Part shown: one piece after another, positions 4,178 through 25,983 of the stretch
Layout: the number at the start of each line of letters is the position of its first letter
Numbering within the stretch: the first letter of the stretch is position 1
Notes under the pieces: generated by a model
The model's input: the letters and a program-made list of their open reading frames with translations, nothing else
Told to the model about the DNA's origin: nothing
Database searches by the model: none
Position numbers and translations under genes: made by a program
Assembly (NCBI GenBank): GCA_963706795.1
Contig: OY970170.1
Span: 600,001-632,000 of the forward strand
DNA: 32,000 nucleotides
Direction of reading: 5' to 3'
Origin: Candidatus Saccharimonadota bacterium
GTDB lineage: Bacteria; Patescibacteriota; Gracilibacteria; BD1-5; UBA2023

Positions 4178-5977
4178 TTACTTCCCACCCTTCTTGCGAT
4201 CTCCTTCCGTCAAACCCTTCTTGCGGATTCGAACGTTTGATGGAGTAACTTCTACGTACTCATCAGTTGAGATGTAATCGAGAGCTTCTTCGAGTGTGAA
4301 CTTGCGTGGTGGAGTAAGGCGAACTGCTTCGTCTGTTCCAGAGGCTCGCATATTCGTGAGCTGCTTGTTCTTTGTTGGGTTAACAACGAGGTCTCCACCC
4401 TTGAGGTGTTCTCCGATAACCATTCCTTCGTAGACTTCAGTCTGTGGATCGATGAAGATTGGTCCTCGTTCTTCGAGCTTCCAGAGTGAGTATGCCATGG
4501 CATTTCCTCCGACTCCAGAGATCATAGAACCTACTTCGCGCTTTTCGATAGGACCCTTGTAGTCTTCGTAGTGTGAGAATGCAGAGTACATAATACCTTC
4601 ACCCTTTGTCTGTGTAACGAACTGAGATCTAAATCCAAGGAGTCCACGAGTTGGAACTTCGAATTCGAGATTCGTGATTCCATTCTTTGTGTCCATGTTC
4701 TTGATGAGACCCTTTCGCTTTCCGAGTGCTTCGATGATAGAACCTGAGTCACCTTCTGGTACGAATACTGTAACCTGTTCGATTGGCTCTTGCTTCTTTC
4801 CTCCGTCTTCGTGGAAGATAACCTGCGGAGCTCCGACTGAGAGTTCGAAACCTTCACGGCGCATAGACTCGATGAGTACTGAGAGGTGGAGTTCTCCACG
4901 TCCAGATACGTTGTATCCGTTTCCGTCAGAACCGTCGAAGTCTACCTTGAGACCTACGTTCATCTCGAGTTCCTTTTCAAGACGCTCGCGGATGTTTCGT
5001 GAAGTAACGAATTTACCTTCCTTACCTGCAAATGGAGAGTCATTTACACGGAATTCCATCTTGAGAGTTGGCTCATCGATGGTAATTGGTGGCATGGCTT
5101 CAAAATCCGAAACACTCGATACCGTTTCTCCAACGTAGATGTCGGCGATACCAGCGATCGTAACGATGTCTCCTGCTTCTGCTGCAGTTACTTCGTTACG
5201 CTTAAGACCAAGAGAAGTGAAACACTTCGCGATCTTTCCAGTTCGCTTTACTCCGTCGTTTCCGAGGATAGTAACTGACTGACCAGCCTTTACGACTCCT
5301 TCGTATACACGTCCGATACCGAGGCGACCGAGGTAGTTGTCGTACGCAAGGTTTGCGATCTGCATACGGAATGGCTTCTCAAGATCGTTTGATGCCGCAG
5401 CAACGTGATCGAGGATCGTGTCGAAGATTGGAGTAATATCCTTCTTCTCGTCGTTAAGATTGCGAACCGCAACTCCTTCACGAGCAATCGCGTAAACGAT
5501 TGGGAAGTCGAGCTGTTCGTCGGTTGCTCCGAGCTGAACGAAGAGATCAAAAAGCATATCAACTACTTCATCTGGACGAGCTGTTGGCTTGTCGATCTTG
5601 TTGATGATAACGATCGGGCGAAGTCCGAGTGAGAGTGCCTTCTTGAGAACGAACTTCGTCTGTGGCATTGGGCCTTCGTAGGCGTCAACGACGAGACAAA
5701 CTGAGTCAACCATTCGAAGAACACGCTCTACTTCAGAACCGAAGTCCGCGTGACCTGGAGTGTCAACGATGTTGATCTTAACGTCCTTGTAGAATACGGC
5801 AGTATTCTTGGCGTAGATGGTGATACCACGCTCTTTTTCCTGGTCGTTTGAGTCCATAACACAAATGTCGACAGCTTCGTTGTCGCGGAAAACTCCTGAC
5901 TGTTTGAGAAGGGCGTCAACGAGGGTAGTCTTTCCGTGGTCAACGTGGGCGATAATCGCAATATTGCGGTAAATCAT
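4178..5977 (-). CDS. typA: translational GTPase TypA/BipA (599 aa)
   Basis: 'IRNIAIIAHVDHGKTTLVDALLKQSG', 'DTPGHADFGSEVER' and 'NKIDK' G-motifs, with EF-G-like domains throughout. I place the start at the ATG 5977..5975 (MIYRNIAIIAHVDHGKT) rather than at the 682-aa ORF start. No in-frame TGA. Confidence 0.9.
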   Translation of the reverse strand: MIYRNIAIIAHVDHGKTTLVDALLKQSGVFRDNEAVDICVMDSNDQEKERGITIYAKNTAVFYKDVKINIVDTPGHADFGSEVERVLRMVDSVCLVVDAYEGPMPQTKFVLKKALSLGLRPIVIINKIDKPTARPDEVVDMLFDLFVQLGATDEQLDFPIVYAIAREGVAVRNLNDEKKDITPIFDTILDHVAAASNDLEKPFRMQIANLAYDNYLGRLGIGRVYEGVVKAGQSVTILGNDGVKRTGKIAKCFTSLGLKRNEVTAAEAGDIVTIAGIADIYVGETVSSVSDFEAMPPITIDEPTLKMEFRVNDSPFAGKEGKFVTSRNIRERLEKELEMNVGLKVDFDGSDGNGYNVSGRGELHLSVLIESMRREGFELSVGAPQVIFHEDGGKKQEPIEQVTVFVPEGDSGSIIEALGKRKGLIKNMDTKNGITNLEFEVPTRGLLGFRSQFVTQTKGEGIMYSAFSHYEDYKGPIEKREVGSMISGVGGNAMAYSLWKLEERGPIFIDPQTEVYEGMVIGEHLKGGDLVVNPTKNKQLTNMRASGTDEAVRLTPPRKFTLEEALDYISTDEYVEVTPSNVRIRKKGLTEGDRKKGGK

Positions 5978-6246
5978 AGAAATGAAAAAGGGTATTCGAA
6001 ATTTGAAAAATCGTCTCTCGCAATAGACACAGAAATGAACTCTTTGAGGGAGTTCATGAAGGCTTCTTTCAAAGCTATTTTTGCGTTGTCTTGCCTGCTC
6101 GCGATTTATGTGCCCCATTGTACCGATAATTTCTCTTTGTAAAGCCAAAATATGATTCTTGTATTGGGGCTTTAAAAATGATTGAATCGAGGATGATTTG
6201 ATTCTGAGGTTTCCCTTTTTTGACACTGCGAATGTATTAGCGTAGA

Positions 6247-7446
6247 GTGAGCAAGAAAATTACAAAAACCATGACAAAATTGAATATGTCTTCGCTCAAA
6301 AAGCAGAAGGCCGAAGATACCGCTCGCGAAGCCATCGTTGCAGTAACTCCAGAACCTGCTGCGGTTATTCCTGTCGAATCCGCACCGAAAGCTGACTCCC
6401 CAAAGGCGCGTATTTCACTCGCAGGTTTTAAAAAAGAGCCCGAAAAGGTGGCTGAGTCAGTAATTTCAGAACCGGTTGTAATGACCCAGGTTCCGAATAC
6501 TGCTGAGATTGAAGTTCCACTGCCATCTACCTCGCTTGCACAGGAAGCGACGGCTGTAGAGGCGCTCGTGACTTCTCTCGAATCCGAGGCAAAGTCAGAG
6601 CCAGCACCACATCCAGACTTTATTCCTGAGGCGGCAATCGTACCAATTCAACCTAAGGAATATTTCCCAAATCTTGATATGGGTGACGCTGATGATCTCT
6701 TTAAGGATCTCGAAGGCGGCATTATTATCGAAGCTCCTAAAGAAGAAGGAAAGACAGCCGAGATTTCTCTTCTAGAACCGACCGAAGTATTTACTCTTCC
6801 ACAGATGGTCGAAGTGGGGCCTGAGCCAGAAGTGACTCAACCTGCTTCGGCACTTCCTGAGATGATCGAATTTACTACGCCAGAGAGTTCTGAGGCGGCA
6901 ACGGAGATTTCGAACGCTTCTGACTCAGTGGCTCCTCTCGAACAGGAATCACCTTCTGTGCAAAATGCAGAGATTCCTCCTGTAAAGCCAGTTCTCAGTG
7001 GTCTCGCTGCATTTATGAACAATAAAAAGCGAATGCGTTTTGCAGGAATATTCGCTTCAATTTTAGGTATCGTGGTAGTCTGACTCGTGGTTGGTACGAA
7101 CATGCTTTCTCGTAGTCAGGTTCCTCCACATGTAGTCTCGACGGGCGCAACCGCCATAAAGCCAAAACCGGTAGTTGCCGTAACGCCTCCTGTAGCTTCG
7201 GGGGCACTTGCTCCAACAACTGCAACTGGTGGGCTCACAGAGTCTGGTGCAACTAATACAGGAGTTGCTAGTGGTACGGGCATGGTAGCTGCTGGTCCAG
7301 GAACTCAGACTGGAGCTACGTTGACTACTTCCACTGGTGCGGCAGTGCCCGATATGACCACAGCTACCGGCTCAACAATTACATATCCTAAGGCAAATAC
7401 GACGGTGAATTCGATTCGAACACCAAATGTTCATAAGCCTCGTTAG
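6247..7446 (+). CDS. low-complexity single-pass membrane protein (acidic P/E/A-rich N-half, T/G/A-rich C-half), hypothetical
   Basis: ORFs 6247..7083 and 7087..7446 are in one frame, joined by a TGA at 7081-7083 that lies inside the only hydrophobic segment (FAGIFASILGIVVV-G-LVVGTNML). The stop is TAG and a strong terminator follows. Confidence 0.55.
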
Positions 7447-18492: not shown

Positions 18493-21400
18493 ATGAAAAA
18501 ATATCTTCTTTCGATTCTCTTCTCACTTTTTGTACTTTTTCAGATTTCCTATGTTTCTGCATACGAAATCTTAAGTGATAGTGGTGCTCTTATTACGCAT
18601 AGCTCTCCTGATTCAGTTGTTTGGTCTTCCAATGGCAATGGTGGATATGAAGCATATGGCTATCAAATTCCACTCTACCTTTCTGGTACTATGGTCGCCA
18701 ATAAATGGGGTATAACATCCCTAACTAGTGGTGTCGATTCTTTTGGCGGTAAAAGCTACTATCATATGTATTGACCTAACTACAACTGGTGAGGATATCT
18801 TTCTATGTATTACCCAGTCTTTACAGACCATACAATGTATCGTTCAGGCATAGGGCGTTTTGAAGGTGGTCTTATGGTCTATGGTACTGGTTCAAGTCTT
18901 TACCGTTTTTGTACTTATGATGGAAATAATGGTGCTGTAAGCCTTTGAGGATGATGGAACTCTGGCTATCCACAGGGCAGATTCTTTTTTGGATCAGGTT
19001 CATCTACACAGAATTTTGCTGATTGTTCAAATAGCTATCTTTGAGGTACTTTAGTGAATTGGAATTGAGAATGATCAACAGCAACCTGTTCCGACTGAAT
19101 CAAAAATCAAGATGAGACAACTGTTGATAAAGGTTGAGTCTGCACTCCGATAATGTTCAGCATATGAAATAATCTATATATAAAGCCTGATGAAACTGCA
19201 ACTGATAATAAAGTGCTTTTTGCTTCTGGTGCGACTATAGGCGCCTTCTCCCATGATTGAATTGGAGCATATCTACAGCGTGCCTCTGACTTAAAGATTT
19301 ACTATAAACTACTTTCGAATACTAACGTTAATGATTTTGGAGTTGCCAGAGAAACAGTAAGGGGTGTAAACTCTAATCTTTGTACATTATGAGACTCCTC
19401 TGATCTCACTACTCTTATCGCTTGAGGCTGTGGTTTTTACATGTTCAAGAAGAATGCGTTAGATATGTCTAGTCTTACACCTATTCTTTCTGATCCAACT
19501 GAGCATCAGTATTCTGCTCTCCCCTCCTTCTTTACAGGTTCCTCAACCATAAGGTACCAGAATGCGTATCTTTGAGGTACGTATCTGAAAAATATTTCCG
19601 ATGCAAACCATTGAGTGCCATTTCTTGTCTCTTGATTTCCCGCCTATGCAAGCTCTTCACCTTATTGACAGGCATTACGTCTAGGCAATGACTACTACTA
19701 TGTGCATGGCCTAAGTGCAACTTATGGTAAACTTTGGAAGAAAAATGCTTTCGATTCTACTGAGTGAATTCAGTTAACAGATACGAATGTACTTGGTGTT
19801 AATAGTGGGCCAGGGACTGTATTTTCTGTAAAGGAAGATTGATCTAAGGTTGTATATAGGGAAAACTCCACTGGTTATCTTTATGTGTTACCAACTTCTC
19901 TTTCATTTCCCAGTAACTGAAATCAGGTTACGAATTTTGCTGTAACAAATCCTATGTATGGCTATGCGTCAGTGAGTCAATTAGCCACTTGTTCCGACTG
20001 AATCAAAAATCAAGATGAAACAAGTGTTGATACGGGCTGAGTATGTTCGCCAACGGCCACCACTCCAGTTGTTAGTAATATATGTCCTGCAAACATGTGT
20101 TGTTCGACGGATGTAGTAAGTAGCTCTCAGTCTAATAAACAGAACCTTCTTGACACAGCTTCGATAATGGCATCAAACATTGGCGATCCGATTACTCTAT
20201 CGTCGGGTGAGTCAATATATACGGATACTTTTCTCAAAACCCAAGCTCCAGGTGTGCCGTTTGAATTTACGCTGACCAATAAAACTCGTGCTACATACGA
20301 TGGTCCCGTAGGTTTTGGATGGGATCACAACAATAACATTTTCCTACGAGAAGAAACTGATGGCTCTGTGACGTATTACGATGGGAAGCTCGGGGTTTCT
20401 CCGTTCCCTAAAAATACGGATGGGACATTTGCTCGTAATAATTCTGCAAAAGCACAACTCACGAAGACGGGTGGATTTTATGATATAACATTCGACTCAG
20501 GGAATGTGTATCACTTCGCAAACAATCTCCGTGTTGCGACGATTACAGACAAGAATCAAAACATCACAACATTTACCTACGATACGAACAATCGCCTTAC
20601 TAAAGTAACTGATTCTCTCGGTCGAGATGCGGTGTATGTGTATTTTGATAATGGTCGCATAAAAACCGTTACAGATTCAAATGGTCGAGTAGCTACTATG
20701 GCTTATTATGGCACGAGTGATCTACTTGGGAACGAAAATGACCTCAAGTTTCTCATGATTACTAATCCTGATACATCAACAAAAACAGTTTCATATCAGT
20801 ATACCAAGGTTGGCGGCAATCAGATTCTCTCTCACAATATCAGTAAACTCGTTGATGCAAAGGGGCAGACGTATGTTGAGAATACATATGACACGAATGA
20901 CCGCGTAACAGCACAGAAGTTCGGAGATGGGACGCTTACATATGCCTATGTACTTGATGCAACAAACAAATACGTCACAAAAACTACAGTTACCAACAAG
21001 CGCGGAACTGTAACCGAATACACCTACGATCAGTACGGTAATAATCTCACTATGACGGTGCTTGCTGCGGTTTGAACTGGTTCGCTTGCATATACTTATG
21101 CGTATGATGTTTCTGGTCGCATGATTTCCGAGAAGAGGCCTCGCGGGAACGGTACAACGTATGTCTACGATATTCGTGGAAATATCCTCGAAAAACGTCA
21201 AAAGATGGACATGACTGCGGCCAATAATGACGCGGTCGATCTGGTGACGAAATATGTATACGATGTAAACTACCGCAATGCTACCGAGCGTACTCTCCCA
21301 TCAGGACTCAAGACAGCATATACCTATGATACAAAGGGGAATCTGACGGAGTCTAAGGTTGTTGCCGCAACTCTTAACAGTGGTACAACGACAGATATCA

Positions 21401-24400
21401 CGATCAGTAATGAATACGACACAAAGGGCAGACTCACAAAATCCACCGATCCAGAGGGGAATATTTCAACCTATGAATACGGGACTGGAAGTGCCATTAC
21501 AAAGATTACAAAGGGGCTTCGTAATTCGGGGGCAGGTTTGGATGCTACGGCTGCAAGAGTCATAACCTATACCTACGATACTCGTGAAAACCCACTCACA
21601 ACAACTGATCCCGAGGGGAATGTAAGTACATTTACATACGATGCATTCGATCGACTTACCTCTCAGCTTTCGGCAGCAGGGATTCGGAAGAATTTTGTAT
21701 TCAGTGCGAATAACAAGATCGAGAAAACGATCACTCCGCTCACGGAATCAGTGAGTCTCACTGAGGAAAATACCTACGATACCCTTGATGAAATCATCGG
21801 CACAAAACTCAGTAGTACTCCTTCTGATGCTCGTAATCTCGTCATTGTTCGTGACAAGAACGAGAATATTGTTTCGACGACTGATCCATCAGGACTCACA
21901 ACCAAGTACACTTACGATGCACTCGAGCGTGTTACCGAAAAAAGACTCGTCACAGTCGCAAATGATCCTACAAAGGATATCGTGACCCGTTACGAATACG
22001 ATACAAATGGAAATCAGATCAAGATCACTGATCCTATCGGTGCTATTACCGTGCTTACATACGATCTCTTTGATCGTCCAAAGACCAAGACGGATGCTCT
22101 CGGCACAAAAACAACCTACACCTATGATACGGTTGGAAACATCACAGAAACTCGCACAGAAAGTGCAACAGGAGCACTCCTTGCCAAGACATCTGTTGTA
22201 TTCAATTCAATCACAAGACTACTGACACAGTCAGTATGGAATCTTTCGACAAACACACCAATAGTGCAGTCGTACACATATGATAAAAACGGAAATATCC
22301 TCACGCTCACCGATCCACGAAGCGGAGTAACGACAACGTCATATTCTCTACACTGACAACCGGTTGAGATCACTGATCCTGTTGGAAATAAAACCCAGTT
22401 TACTTACGACAAGCGCGGACTCGTCATCACTCGAAAGTCACTCACAACTGACGGGAAAATCGCCACCACATCGTATCTCTACGACGGTGATGGACGGGTG
22501 CTTTCGAGCACAGATGCACTCGGCAATATCCAAAAATATGCATACGATGCATTTGGTCGCGTAACAAAAAAGACCGATCCAGCGAATAATATTACCGACT
22601 ATATCTACGATATATTCGGCAATCTTCTGGGTGAAAATGTTCGCTTTGGAACTGGAACGGTGACTACGTCATACGAGTATAACACTGCAAACCGAGTCAC
22701 GAAACTCACAGATGCAAAGGGAAATGTAACGACATATTCTTACGATATGCTTGGTCGCAAAACCAAGCAGACATCTGCAGATGGAAGTTTCACAACCTTT
22801 GTCTACGATGCAGCATCGCGACTTACAGGATCAACGGATGCAAATGGAACTGTCGTCACCAATGTCTACGATCCACTTGGTCGCCTCACTGCACGTACTA
22901 TTGCAACCGGTACAGGTGTACTTTGAACAACGAGTGAATCATATAGCTACGATCCACTCGGTCGTCTTACTTCTGCAAATGATAACCAAAGCGGAAGCCT
23001 GAATTTCACCTATGATAGCCTAGGCCGTCTCGCAACCGAGTCACAGGGAATGGGTCAGATCAGCTATACCTACGATCTAGCTGGAAATCGTACCAATATC
23101 ACAACGGGTATGGGCTATCTCGTGGATTTGACCTATGATCCACTGAGTCGTCTTTCGGCGGTTTCGTACAATGGTGTGAATATTGCGACATACAGTTATA
23201 CAGGGGCTTCCTTGAGTTCGCTTCAGTTTGCAAATGGGGTAACTACGAGTGCGTCTCAAGATATCATCGGACGACTGACGGCTCTTGATTTTGGGGCAAC
23301 TGGTCTTCCAGGTCGTGTGTTCACATATTCAGCAAATGGAAATATCCTCTCTGATGGACAAAAGGATTATACATATGACGTACTGAGTCGACTTACTCAG
23401 ACGCAGAGCCAATCTGGTGCACTCATTGCTCCTGAAAATACACTCTACGCGTACGATGCAGTTGGGAATCGTCTCGCAGAAAATAAACTGCAAGCCACTA
23501 AGTTGTACACGACAAATATGCTCAACCAGTACCTCTCCTTGAGTGATTCTACTGCATCAGGCGCAACTACGTTCACCTACGATCTCAACGGCAATATTCT
23601 TTCGAACGCAAAGTTCAAATTTGCATACGACTATCAAAATAGACTCGTAGAAGTTCGTAATACTGCAGATAATTCGCTCGTTGCACGCTATGTCTACGAT
23701 GTCCTCGGGCGTCGTACTTCCAAGTCAGTCGGAGATGCCACAACGACCTATCTCTATGCAGGAACTGATGTCATAAAAGAGTCCAAAAAGGCTACTCCAG
23801 AATCCACAGTACTCGATACCCTTCGAGTTTACGGCAATGGCGCAGATGACCTCCTTGCATACACGACTCAGGAATCTTCCGTTGCCCCTTCTGTCTCGGA
23901 AGAATACGCTTTTTGTCTCAAATCTGTCACGCCTTCCAAGGCATCTTTCCTCAAATATGGTTGGACAGCACTCGTAGACCGATGTAACGATCTCACGACC
24001 CAAACTCAGAACGCAACGATCGCAACACATACCCACTACCTCTTCAAAGATCACCAGAATTCCACCCTCGCCCTCACCGATGCCTCAGGCTCGCTCGTCG
24101 CGTCATACTCATACGATGCATTCGGACTTCCGTACATCGCAACTGGTTCAGGAGCATTCACTCCACTCTCTATCTACACTGGTTCGCTTCACAACAACGA
24201 CCGATTCTTCACCGGTCGTGAATATGACTCAGAAACAGGACTCTACCACTACCGAGCAAGAACCTACGATCCAATCCTCGGTAGATTCCTCCAAAGAGAT
24301 CCCGTAGGAACTGCCGATCAAATCAATCTCTATACATATGTCGGGAACAATCCTGTGCGGTTTGTAGATCCGAGTGGGATGGTTATTAAGACTACACTGA

Positions 24401-24888
24401 TGGAAGCACGAGGATGAATCGCTGGGTACTATGATTTTGTACAACAACAAAAAAAGAGTGATAATTTCTCAGACTATGGACCTGCGTATGTTTCAGATAT
24501 TACCATTGCTCCTGCATTCAATCTGATTGGAAATTGGGAGAAATTATCGTCAACCGAGAGAGTTGCTAATTCTGCATTAATAATCCCCTACGATAAAGTA
24601 ATTTCATTATGAGCGGAGGCGACAATATGAACTGTAAAAACATTTGAATTAGTAACTACGCATTGACTTACGAAGAGTAAAAAGGAAATGGCAAAATTAG
24701 CTCAGGATATTGCGGAGAACGGTATAAAAGATGCTGTAAAATATATAGAATTTAAAGGTACTAAATATTTAGTTGATGGTCATCATAGACTTGCAGCCGC
24801 GAAAGAGTTACTTATAAAAGAAATACCTGCAGAAGTAGTAAAACTTCCATATAATTGATATCAGACTGTAAAAGACCTATTCTTCTAA
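18493..24888 (+). CDS. giant secreted RHS/YD-repeat polymorphic toxin (2131 aa, 30 in-frame TGA) with C-terminal ParB/Srx-like 'DGHHR' domain
   Basis: I walked the frame codon by codon from 18493 and found no TAA or TAG until 24886-24888. All five standard-code ORFs (18493.., 20095.., 21121.., 22498.., 23050..) share this frame. Signal peptide 'MKKYLLSILFSLFVLFQISYVSA'. RHS core entry 'GDPITLSSGESIYTDT...GPVGFGWDHN'. There are dozens of YD repeats ('YTYD..GN', 'Y.YD.lgRl'). The core ends at 'DPVG-x19-DPSGM' (24367-24381). Confidence 0.85.
19087..19143 (+). repeat. intragenic repeat 1 encoding Cys module 'CSDGIKNQDETTVDKGGVC'
   Basis: This 57-nt segment is near-identical to 19990..20046, for example the shared tgttccgactgaatcaaaaatcaagatga. 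In both copies, both glycines flagged G in 'SD-G-I' and 'G-G-V' are TGA. Confidence 0.8.
19990..20046 (+). repeat. intragenic repeat 2 encoding 'CSDGIKNQDETSVDTGGVC'
   Basis: See repeat 1. It lies 903 nt downstream in the same frame, immediately before the RHS core. Confidence 0.8.
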
Positions 24889-24897
24889 AACCCAACT

Positions 24898-25374
24898 ATG
24901 GCACTTTGGCAATATCAATGTCGTCTTTACCCAAGAGAAAATATTAAAACTTTACTGAAGGCAGAGATCTGAAATTTTACTATTGATTTACTAGATGAAT
25001 TAAATTTATGGAAGGAATTTAAATTACAGAAAGAGCTTTTATTAGACCTGTCTAGGATTTTGCCTTCAGTAAAGTCCTGGTCAGAGGATGTCCTAGTGTA
25101 TGGTGATACAGCTACCAGTGATATACAAATAGACATTGAATGATGATCTATAAATTCCGTATCTTTCCGTTTAGATATACAACGACCGAATAATGTGTTA
25201 CTCGCACAATTTCTTGAATTGGTAACTAAATACGAATTAAGCTGTTTTAGTCAGAACGATATTATTCTAGTGCCAGATAAAATTAGTCTTATTAAGAGTA
25301 TTAGGAAATCACCTGCATTTAACTTTGTTGCTAATCCTGAAGAATTTCTCAGTTCGTTAACCAATATTACCTAG
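24898..25374 (+). CDS. candidate cognate immunity protein (158 aa, 3 in-frame TGA), family unknown
   Basis: The ATG lies 9 nt after the toxin TAA. Under code 25 the frame is open to TAG at 25372-25374 (MALWQYQCRLYPRENIKTLLKAEIGNFTIDLLDELNLWKEF...). It shares the same low-GC block as the toxin tip and has no signal peptide or TM segment. The functional call rests on position only. Confidence 0.55.
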
Positions 25375-25380
25375 ATTCTT

Positions 25381-25983
25381 ATGCCTATTTTCCTTTCCCT
25401 TCTCATTCGACCCAAAGATTTTTTTCAAAATCACGCGCTTCAATTATCAGAAGAAACATATTATTTCTGTGCAGTATTCTACTGTGTTGCTACTAGTATC
25501 GAACAGATAGAGAAAAAGATACTCATGAAACAAAATGCCGCTATGAGTATTGGTCAGAACTGGTCTGGATACTGGGGTTCGGTAGCAATCGGTGCACTCT
25601 TCGCTATCATATCACTTGCAATCGGTGCATGGTGGTACGATAAGCGAATGAACATTGCGTGAGCTCCACGAGATTTCAATAAGGCAAAGAGACTCTATCT
25701 TTTCAGCTCACTCATCTGGGCAGTGCCACTCATCGTGAATCAGGTCTTGTACACGATTTTTGCTGCTTCACCAACTGACCAGACAGAGATTTTCTATCTG
25801 GATATGTTCAGTCTGGTATGAATCATTTTTCCATTTTACTCAGTCTGGGTAAGTTACAGTGGTGTAAAAGTTCTCAATCCAGATGCACACGCTGGTAGAC
25901 TTCGACTTTGGTTTCTGATACTTCCTGTTGTAGTATATCTTATCTGAACGGTCCTCATAATTTGAGCGATGTTTCATATGTAA
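25381..25983 (+). CDS. multi-pass membrane protein, possibly Yip1-domain family (200 aa, 4 in-frame TGA)
   Basis: ORF 25381..25662 continues in frame to TAA at 25981-25983. The N-terminus 'MPIFLSLLIRPKDFFQNH' is followed by 4-5 hydrophobic segments (WGSVAIGALFAIISLAIGAWWY, LFSSLIWAVPLIV, IIFPFYSVWVSY, LWFLILPVVVYLI). Confidence 0.5.

Follow-up and report, generated by a model that had tools for sequence, protein, structure and literature searches.

Organization of the RHS gene and its C-terminal toxin domain

The stretch of DNA analyzed here (the window) comprises 32,000 nucleotides of contig OY970170.1 of a Candidatus Saccharimonadota bacterium (assembly GCA_963706795.1, positions 600,001 to 632,000) and contains a gene for an RHS polymorphic toxin (18493..24888; forward strand, as for all features below unless stated otherwise) followed by a small gene (24898..25374). 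The RHS protein has 2131 residues under genetic code 25 (TGA = Gly) and is matched 13 times by the RHS_repeat model of Pfam (E 2.6e-97). All elements by which RHS/YD-repeat toxins are recognized were found in it, namely the repeats, the DPxG[LM] motif at the end of the core and a variable tip behind this motif. With high confidence, the tip and the product of the small gene are assigned below to the Tox-ParB toxins and their immunity proteins, the latter represented by a family referred to here as MAxWQ. The toxin class itself is already known (Zhang et al., 2012, Biol Direct 7:18; PMC3482391) and is not new.

The RHS protein continues past the sequence DPSGM only under code 25, as was claimed in the initial annotation of the window. 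With TGA taken as sense, 18493..24888 reads through as 2131 codons in one frame, 30 of which are TGA and none TAA or TAG; translation table 11 breaks the same region up into many short open reading frames (ORFs). Codon 2122 is a TGA that falls into an alignment column occupied by Gly in 135 of 149 relatives of the toxin domain and by Trp in none of them, and reading TGA as Gly is therefore favored over reading it as Trp (code 4) or as a stop; codon 2058 is TGA as well, Gly being the commonest residue of its column. The genes holA and mfd and that of an FKBP-type isomerase, all located in the window, are likewise intact only with TGA as sense. The window contains no tRNA gene by which this reading could be confirmed directly. 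Code 25 is known only from Gracilibacteria and Absconditabacteria.

The DPSGM boundary (24367..24381), an instance of the DPxG[LM] motif, is the expected site of self-cleavage and the expected cassette junction. Behind it the tip opens with VIKTTLMEARGGIAGYYDF and extends over exactly 168 codons (24382..24885) to a TAA stop (24886-8); a 9-nucleotide spacer, AACCCAACT (24889..24897), separates it from the 158-codon ORF of the small gene, which begins with ATG at 24898 and ends with TAG (25372-4). The initial annotation had given the same lengths and spacing and had placed the DGHHR motif of the tip at 24775..24789, all of which was reproduced by counting and translation.

Compared alone with Pfam and NCBIfam, the tip produced sub-threshold matches only, all of them to ParB-type models and all at residues ~99-155. 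A search of 5.8 billion proteins with the tip returned five relatives, aligned over its last ~85 residues only, two of which terminate RHS-type proteins (from Phycisphaerales and Clostridia). A profile composed of the tip and four homologs, 5/5 of which matched ParB_N and ParBc_2, retrieved exclusively ParB/Srx proteins at the top of the PDB search: sulfiredoxin (1.2e-5) and ParB (1.3e-4), then SbnI, SerK, Noc and Spo0J. The AlphaFold model of the closest usable homolog (the P0001 domain, 57% identical to the tip) has a predicted local distance difference test score (pLDDT) of 89.5, and the top 50 of 50 Foldseek matches of this model belong to the ParB/Srx superfamily (probability 1.00, template modeling (TM) scores 0.62-0.76). 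The fold had been called initially from the DGHHR signature, and both searches bear this call out. A hidden Markov model (HMM) of the domain built without the window sequence matches the tip at E 1.8e-38; HMM, profile and Foldseek results agree in placing a Tox-ParB toxin domain of the ParB/Srx fold at RHS residues 2046-2131 (86 residues, 24628..24885).

An exhaustive HMMER search of 1.84 billion representative proteins, in which row 1 of the alignment was the TGA-free fragment of the RHS protein (residues 2059-2121), yielded 2070 relatives of the domain with E≤1e-3, of which 404 reached E≤1e-10. The module lies at the extreme C-terminus of almost all of the 150 top-scoring relatives, the proteins being 91-3196 residues long and their scaffolds including RHS ends, HINT self-cleaving ends and the VENN motif; its presence at this position in hundreds of proteins sustains the polymorphic-toxin reading proposed at the outset. 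The hexapeptide VDGHHR occurs in 127 and VDGNHR in 9 of 152 relatives. Of the family's 30 most conserved columns, 28 are matched by the domain of the window and the other two show Ile/Val swaps; the domain is thus considered an intact family member. The sequence and context features that characterize Tox-ParB toxins, i.e., the ParB/Srx fold, DGHHR, the extreme C-terminal place on a scaffold and an adjacent partner gene, are all present here.

The DGHHR segment (D2095 to R2099; 24775..24789 = GATGGTCATCATAGA) comprises the GxxR P-motif, predicted to bind phosphate, and aligns with GERR of ParB, GCHR of sulfiredoxin and the GNHR loop of ToxB, a CdiA-borne toxin of the ParB fold (Kaljevic ... Le, 2026, bioRxiv 10.64898/2026.05.05.722872). 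The Gly, the second His and the Arg of this segment are invariant across 149 relatives. T2056-H2057 (24658..24663), which belong to a conserved THxxT motif (Thr in 146/149 relatives, His in 134/149 and Gln in 10), are the putative gamma-phosphate or catalytic position and, judging by spacing only, may be equivalent to the catalytic Gln of ParB and to Q60 of ToxB. The family also conserves a D-I-x-x-N-G-I motif and a near-invariant Tyr, whose spacing is comparable to that of the ATP-specific base contacts (D75, Y81 and R82) and W134 of ToxB, Y81 and R82 themselves not being conserved.

The first ~82 residues of the tip (24382..24627) are unassigned and may be a linker or an entry region: homologs cover just the C-terminal 49-58% of the tip, and this part had no detectable homolog and no match in Pfam or NCBIfam, in agreement with the early remark that the front of the tip carries no recognizable motif; the conserved module is confined to the last ~86 residues. 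A Gly-rich stretch in it, ARGGIAGYYDF, resembles stretches at the same position in P0001 (FGGIAGGIRGLF), P0002 and P0004, and recalls the 'cytoplasm entry helix' mentioned for ToxB.

A scaffold-free form of the domain was observed on the chromosome of Deinococcus hopiensis (locus L006), where a 92-residue DGHHR protein (5699..5977) is followed by a 202-residue MAxWQ protein (6001..6609) with a 40-residue insertion, the pair adjoining a DDE transposase. Two readings fit this arrangement, an orphan cassette and a toxin-antitoxin-like unit.

The MAxWQ family and alternative partner genes

The 158-residue product of the downstream ORF, taken alone, had no match in Pfam or NCBIfam and no relative among the 5.8 billion proteins. 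Its family emerged once the genes next downstream of three toxin homologs were picked purely by location: all of them (3/3) encode colinear homologs of the window ORF that start with MA[LT]WQ. A profile of four MAxWQ proteins gathered 35 clusters of 117-202 residues, all annotated as 'hypothetical' and none with a Pfam domain. An HMM of the family, built without the window sequence, matched the ORF end to end (E 1.3e-33), this being the sole match among the 444 ORFs of the window. The family (~150-165 residues) possesses invariant M1, A2, W4, Q5, G69 and R91 and near-invariant P12, D93, S138, F143 and P147, and the window ORF keeps every one of these residues. Homology, HMM and locus context hence mark 24898..25374 as the predicted cognate immunity gene, encoding a divergent MAxWQ member.

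Neither Pfam (at E≤1) nor NCBIfam contained a family matched by any of 36 MAxWQ members, and the MAxWQ profile found nothing in PDB at E≤10. A model of a family member with a pLDDT of 96 had no neighbor among PDB folds (best E 0.04, TM ≤0.35) and no match in a viral structure library. As regards Imm-SuFu, SUKH, Imm20 and Imm27, no sequence match (Pfam, 36 members) and no PDB fold match to MAxWQ was obtained, Imm20 and Imm27 being presumably represented in Pfam. The MAxWQ family may be identical to Imm20 of Zhang et al. (2012) or to iToxB, the immunity protein of ToxB, of the preprint. Being unnamed and having a confidently predicted fold with no structural neighbor, these proteins of ~155 residues are a clean target for structures of ParB-pocket blocking.

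Partner genes were compared at 47 reference-genome loci with the full toxin module (scan pattern VDGHHR, the GNHR forms lying outside the scan). A MAxWQ gene stands directly after the toxin at 24 of them, at -29 to +63 nucleotides from the toxin stop and in at least five phyla, and 385 nucleotides downstream at one more (L056). The place behind the toxin is taken by a calcineurin-like metallophosphoesterase at 17 loci and by a third small family at 3, and two loci (L038, L043) have neither partner. The MAxWQ gene and the phosphoesterase never share a locus (0/47), i.e., they are mutually exclusive. Consequently, the 'new immunity family' of the initial annotation stands in so far as the partner is real and conserved and has no relative in Pfam, NCBIfam or PDB, but not as regards its uniqueness: the family is unnamed, not unique, and is the commonest partner of the DGHHR toxin.

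The phosphoesterase (L010, L014, L016-L022, L024, L029, L036, L037, L039, L040, L042 and L047; e.g., L016 3292..3966) consists of 224-238 residues, is calcineurin-like (PF00149, E 1.5e-14), is encoded directly after the toxin stop and belongs to Clostridia in all 17 cases. Even between copies with only 52% identity, all five of its metal-binding motifs are unchanged. The toxins paired with it are as near to the MAxWQ-paired ones (54-65%) as to each other, and DGHHR is common to both groups. Among PDB sequences no relative of the phosphoesterase was found at E≤1, only a faint match to the YfcE family was otherwise obtained, and in the searchable literature no mention of its association with Tox-ParB was found. 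The third family (L034 3299..3694, L045 1000..1362 and L051 1973..2338; ~120-131 residues, VIHNLP...SAWDxDHFF), hosted by delta-proteobacterial, gamma-proteobacterial and Bradymonadales genomes, had no Pfam match.

Toxin and MAxWQ genes are also paired at plasmid RHS loci of Leptospira weilii and Spartinivicinus ruber, where the partners are annotated as 'hypothetical protein'. The toxin motif is varied at these loci to DGNHR (L. weilii, L089 926..2785) and HGNNR (S. ruber, L090 1..2764), and several family members, the Leptospira one included, carry a C-terminal extension ...GK[MQ]PG[YF]WK[YF][VM]K.

MAxWQ genes accompanied by neither a toxin gene nor a remnant of one were found on plasmids of Sphingopyxis (L091 3001..3486) and Sinorhizobium (L092 3001..3486, flanked by insertion sequences) and beside TnsA/TnsB genes of a Tn7-like element (L008 5001..5444). 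Such orphan copies on mobile elements are typical of immunity genes, and the present ones suggest that plasmids and a transposon carry immunity on its own.

Cassette exchange and the surroundings of the toxin gene

The tip and the immunity gene coincide with a block of low guanine plus cytosine (GC) content (~24400..25500; 0.30-0.38 in 100-nucleotide windows), the drop setting in at ~24400, directly behind DPSGM. The GC content of the cassette (24382..25374) is 0.336 (33.6%) versus 0.434 (43.4%) in the RHS body. A low-GC block had been noted initially from hand counts on five 60-nucleotide lines (20, 14, 20, 27 and 29 of 60), and both the block and every count proved exact. Of the 16 Gly codons of the cassette, 8 are in-frame TGA. 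Thus, although its composition is foreign, it did not recently come from a bacterium using the standard code; a foreign-looking cassette of this kind implies rather that TGA-recoded bacteria with small genomes swap toxin cassettes among themselves.

When metagenomes were scanned with the end of the RHS core, no near-identical core turned up, the best match having 58% identity. The scan did retrieve several contigs of low GC content with 9-15 TGA in frame; their RHS cores terminate in ...DQINLYTYVxNNP...D.xG. as does that of the window. On five of the recoded contigs (L096, L098-L100 and L106) the core ends are homologous to that of the window and the tips are unrelated; L098-L100 have, in addition, orphan fragments downstream, each composed of a core end and a new tip, and a 181-residue multi-pass membrane protein. 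The GC step at DPSGM, together with unrelated tips on related cores, thus supports tip swapping at this point within recoded lineages, observed among related lineages rather than within one species. HMM scans of the 444 ORFs of the window for toxin and immunity domains revealed no further orphan cassettes.

Upstream of the cassette, the RHS protein begins with a putative Sec-type signal peptide, MKKYLLSILFSLFVLFQISYVSA (18493..18561), read off the translation by the usual features of such peptides. A DUF6531 domain (residues 564-631, 20182..20385; PF20148, E 1.4e-08), the usual element ahead of RHS repeats, precedes the RHS/YD-repeat shell and core (20386..24381), which were delimited with Pfam and end in ...YDPILGRFLQRDP...NNPVRFVDPSGM, this end being homologous to the RHS ends of other TGA-recoded contigs. 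The N-terminal part contains a duplicated Cys-flanked motif, CSDGIKNQDET[TS]VD[KT]GGVC[TS]P (19087..19149 and 19990..20052, residues 199-219 and 500-520); the ~280 residues between the two copies have no Pfam match, are rich in TGA-encoded Gly and may be a receptor-binding module.

The neighbors of the RHS gene are housekeeping genes, encoding a GNAT protein, a zinc-ribbon membrane protein, the FKBP isomerase, HolA and Mfd, and no secretion-system genes were found near it. A gene for a multi-pass membrane protein with a Yip1 domain (25381..25983; Pfam E 9e-10) starts 7 nucleotides past the immunity stop, its first ~100 nucleotides still lying within the low-GC block. It is probably unrelated to the cassette, since other loci show no such gene behind the immunity gene. 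Antisense to the immunity gene there is a 148-codon open frame (24927..25370, reverse strand; TGA as sense), for which no support was found and which most probably just reflects the low GC content.

Mode of action and relation to known ParB-fold proteins

ToxB is the sole experimentally characterized toxin of this fold. It binds ATP and hydrolyzes it slowly (~300 per hour), and the Arg of its loop is required for toxicity; in vitro, ADP was the sole product and no modified nucleotide was detected. Bulk ATP was not depleted early in poisoned cells, and the authors leave room for an ATP-derived product. The toxin compacts the nucleoid without DNA damage or induction of the SOS response, and a dimer of iToxB blocks it by covering its ATP site. 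The killing mechanism, in the words of the authors, 'remains unresolved' (Kaljevic et al., 2026).

Taking the data together, the locus is probably best explained as a Tox-ParB (DGHHR) cassette carried by a Sec-secreted RHS protein of a TGA = Gly bacterium, with nucleotide-dependent toxicity that is blocked by the MAxWQ protein. By analogy with RHS and Tc proteins, the RHS shell would enclose the tip, and self-cleavage at DPSGM would release it into a target cell. Judging from the fold and from ToxB, the domain would bind a nucleoside triphosphate, most likely ATP, and Mg2+ via the G-H-H-R loop, with D2095 and the T-H motif presumably close to the phosphates and D-I-x-x-N-G-I close to the base. 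Nucleotide turnover (hydrolysis, or phosphate transfer to a cellular target), and not DNA cutting, would then cause toxicity, and the MAxWQ protein would bind the toxin and cover its nucleotide site, thereby guarding the producer, in the way that iToxB blocks ToxB.

A nucleotide-dependent chemistry appears somewhat favored over a nucleolytic one on the present analysis, because the neighbors of the fold are nucleoside triphosphate switches and phosphotransferases, ToxB acts without DNA damage, and a phosphoesterase takes 17 of the 47 immunity slots. An intact phosphoesterase in this slot fits a toxin whose phosphorylated product can be removed by an enzyme; its presence in about a third of the loci is thus a clue, drawn from genome context, to the toxin action that the ToxB authors leave open, and it does not bear directly on the window, the partner there being of the MAxWQ type. 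Of the 'nuclease/NTPase' proposed initially, the nucleotide-dependent half gains from the fold neighbors and ToxB, and nothing in our results speaks for the nuclease half.

Several points weigh against this explanation of the locus. The structure models are those of homologs (the P0001 domain, 57% identity; P0016, 31%) and not of the window's own proteins, and the toxicity, neutralization and complex formation of the window pair are predicted from sequence. Y81 and R82 of ToxB, which stack on adenine, correspond by spacing alone to Gly and Ile in the DGHHR family; the ATP specificity of ToxB is thus not transferable, and ATP is a likely, not an established, ligand. The window ORF has no central WG-EDGNR-D motif, reading YGDTATSD there (T71, A72, T73, D75), and has Q95 in place of Arg; it accordingly represents a divergent subtype, as do Clostridia P0009 and the Leptospira copy. 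The phosphoesterase is confined to Clostridia and may act as a plain binder, and nuclease activity is compatible with all results obtained here.

The tip might indeed be a metal-dependent DNase or RNase in which DGHHR forms a metal site that hydrolyzes target nucleic acids, since nucleases predominate among polymorphic toxins (Zhang et al., 2012) and the phosphotransfer chemistry of the fold could cut phosphodiesters. 'ParB-like nuclease' is also the usual database label, the weak Pfam matches include ParBc_2, a 'putative ParB-like nuclease', and a 2025 survey reports ParB motifs in Rhs tips of Pectobacterium and Dickeya and calls these tips DNases, by annotation only. We regard this as unlikely: the nuclease label of ParB goes back to premises that are altogether mistaken (Zhang et al., 2012), the structural neighbors are all switches or phosphotransferases (ParB, Noc and KorB, which use CTP, sulfiredoxin, which uses ATP, and the kinases SerK and SbnI), ToxB compacts the nucleoid without damaging DNA, and DNA cleavage, which a phosphoesterase could not undo, is hard to reconcile with such an enzyme in the immunity slot. 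The latter enzyme would find its place if the tip were an ATP-using phosphotransferase, kinase-like or making a toxic phosphorylated nucleotide, that acts on a conserved cellular molecule. Tox-ParB toxins in general could then be ATP-dependent phosphotransferases met by two unrelated counter-measures, MAxWQ proteins as stoichiometric blockers that bind the toxin and Clostridial metallophosphoesterases that erase the product by catalytic hydrolysis. For this speak three of the fold's non-clamp members (sulfiredoxin, SerK and SbnI), which are phosphotransferases and rank among the top structural matches, the slow turnover of ToxB with its sparing of ATP and the room left for an ATP-derived product, and the phosphoesterase with its invariant metal motifs, which excludes MAxWQ and whose toxins are interleaved with the MAxWQ-paired ones. 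We advance both the phosphotransferase activity and the dual counter-measures only tentatively, given that ToxB made nothing but ADP in vitro, the link to the phosphoesterase is purely genomic and confined to Clostridia, enzyme folds are sometimes reused as binders, and the MAxWQ-type locus of the window has no direct bearing on the matter. If true, phosphotransfer would give a concrete and testable answer to the mechanism of ToxB and a second case of enzyme-type immunity besides the ADP-ribosylhydrolases.

Two further alternatives concern the genes rather than the chemistry. The immunity role of the 158-residue protein is predicted from genomes, and the window copy has no EDGNR motif, which leaves some room for an accessory role as chaperone or adaptor, or for an unrelated gene that is adjacent by chance. 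We consider this highly improbable, however, in view of the tight placement of MAxWQ genes behind the toxin stop at 24 loci of at least five phyla, their replacement at other loci by other small genes that never join them, and the orphan copies on mobile elements; moreover, the known chaperones and adaptors of RHS proteins are encoded upstream. The 30 in-frame stops under table 11 would be expected if the RHS gene were a decayed pseudogene of a standard-code genome with an untranslated tip, but all 30 are TGA among 2131 codons free of TAA and TAG, TGA falls on Gly columns, the conserved residues are intact, and the neighboring housekeeping genes also need TGA as sense, so this option can practically be dismissed.

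Among known systems, the CTP-dependent DNA clamps ParB, Noc and KorB share their N-terminal nucleotide-binding fold with the tip and are its best Foldseek matches (7bnr, 7bm8, 6sdk). The tip differs from them in having DGHHRLAAA in place of GERRxRA, in ending 32 residues past the loop, and in having neither a helix-turn-helix nor a C-terminal dimerization domain. A canonical ParB partition protein, considered as a candidate identity, was rejected on the absence of these domains, the tip scoring 13.9 bits with TIGR00180 against a cut-off of 58.45. Sulfiredoxin, SerK and SbnI, which transfer phosphate in an ATP/ADP-dependent manner, use the fold as a single domain, as the tip does, and their motifs (GCHR in sulfiredoxin, DGxHR-type in SerK and SbnI) align with DGHHR (TM 0.63-0.71); they are, in contrast, housekeeping enzymes of 20-26% identity to the tip, which has none of their substrate-binding elements.

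The resemblance to ToxB is closer. Both consist of a stand-alone ParB-CTPase fold that terminates a polymorphic toxin and has neither DNA-binding nor dimerization domains, both have a GxxR loop (GNHR in ToxB, GHHR in the tip), whose Arg is essential in ToxB and invariant in the tip family, and both are followed directly by a small immunity gene; orphan and truncated cassettes occur in the two systems. They differ in scaffold, CdiA with VENN in ToxB and RHS with DPSGM here, and the relative P0104 combines VENN with DGHHR. PDB searches with the toxin or MAxWQ profiles and models gave no match to a ToxB/iToxB structure. ToxB is reported as rare (52/68,709 species), and Rhs, DGHHR and Tox-ParB are all unmentioned in the preprint (Kaljevic et al., 2026), whereas 404 representatives reach E≤1e-10 with the tip profile. 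Toxins of the ParB fold with DGHHR thus form a large family spread across phyla, and the only experimental study of such toxins calls the CdiA form rare and draws no link to them.

Tox-ParB was described in a computational study, which tended towards a nuclease function; the scaffolds named there are RHS and filamentous haemagglutinin, the DGHHR motif is called strongly conserved, and Imm20, Imm27 and Imm-SuFu are given as immunity proteins (Zhang et al., 2012). The system of the window departs from that description in its partner, which matches no Pfam family (36 members), nor the SuFu fold or any PDB fold, and in its TGA = Gly host, which belongs to a group outside the phyla listed in that study. 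The locus alone adds one member to a toxin family known since 2012, and the most valuable results lie outside the window, namely the extent of the DGHHR family, its unnamed partner family and the phosphoesterase alternative. With Tox-ParB the cassette shares the ParB fold, DGHHR, the C-terminal position on RHS, filamentous-haemagglutinin or HINT proteins and an immunity gene directly behind.

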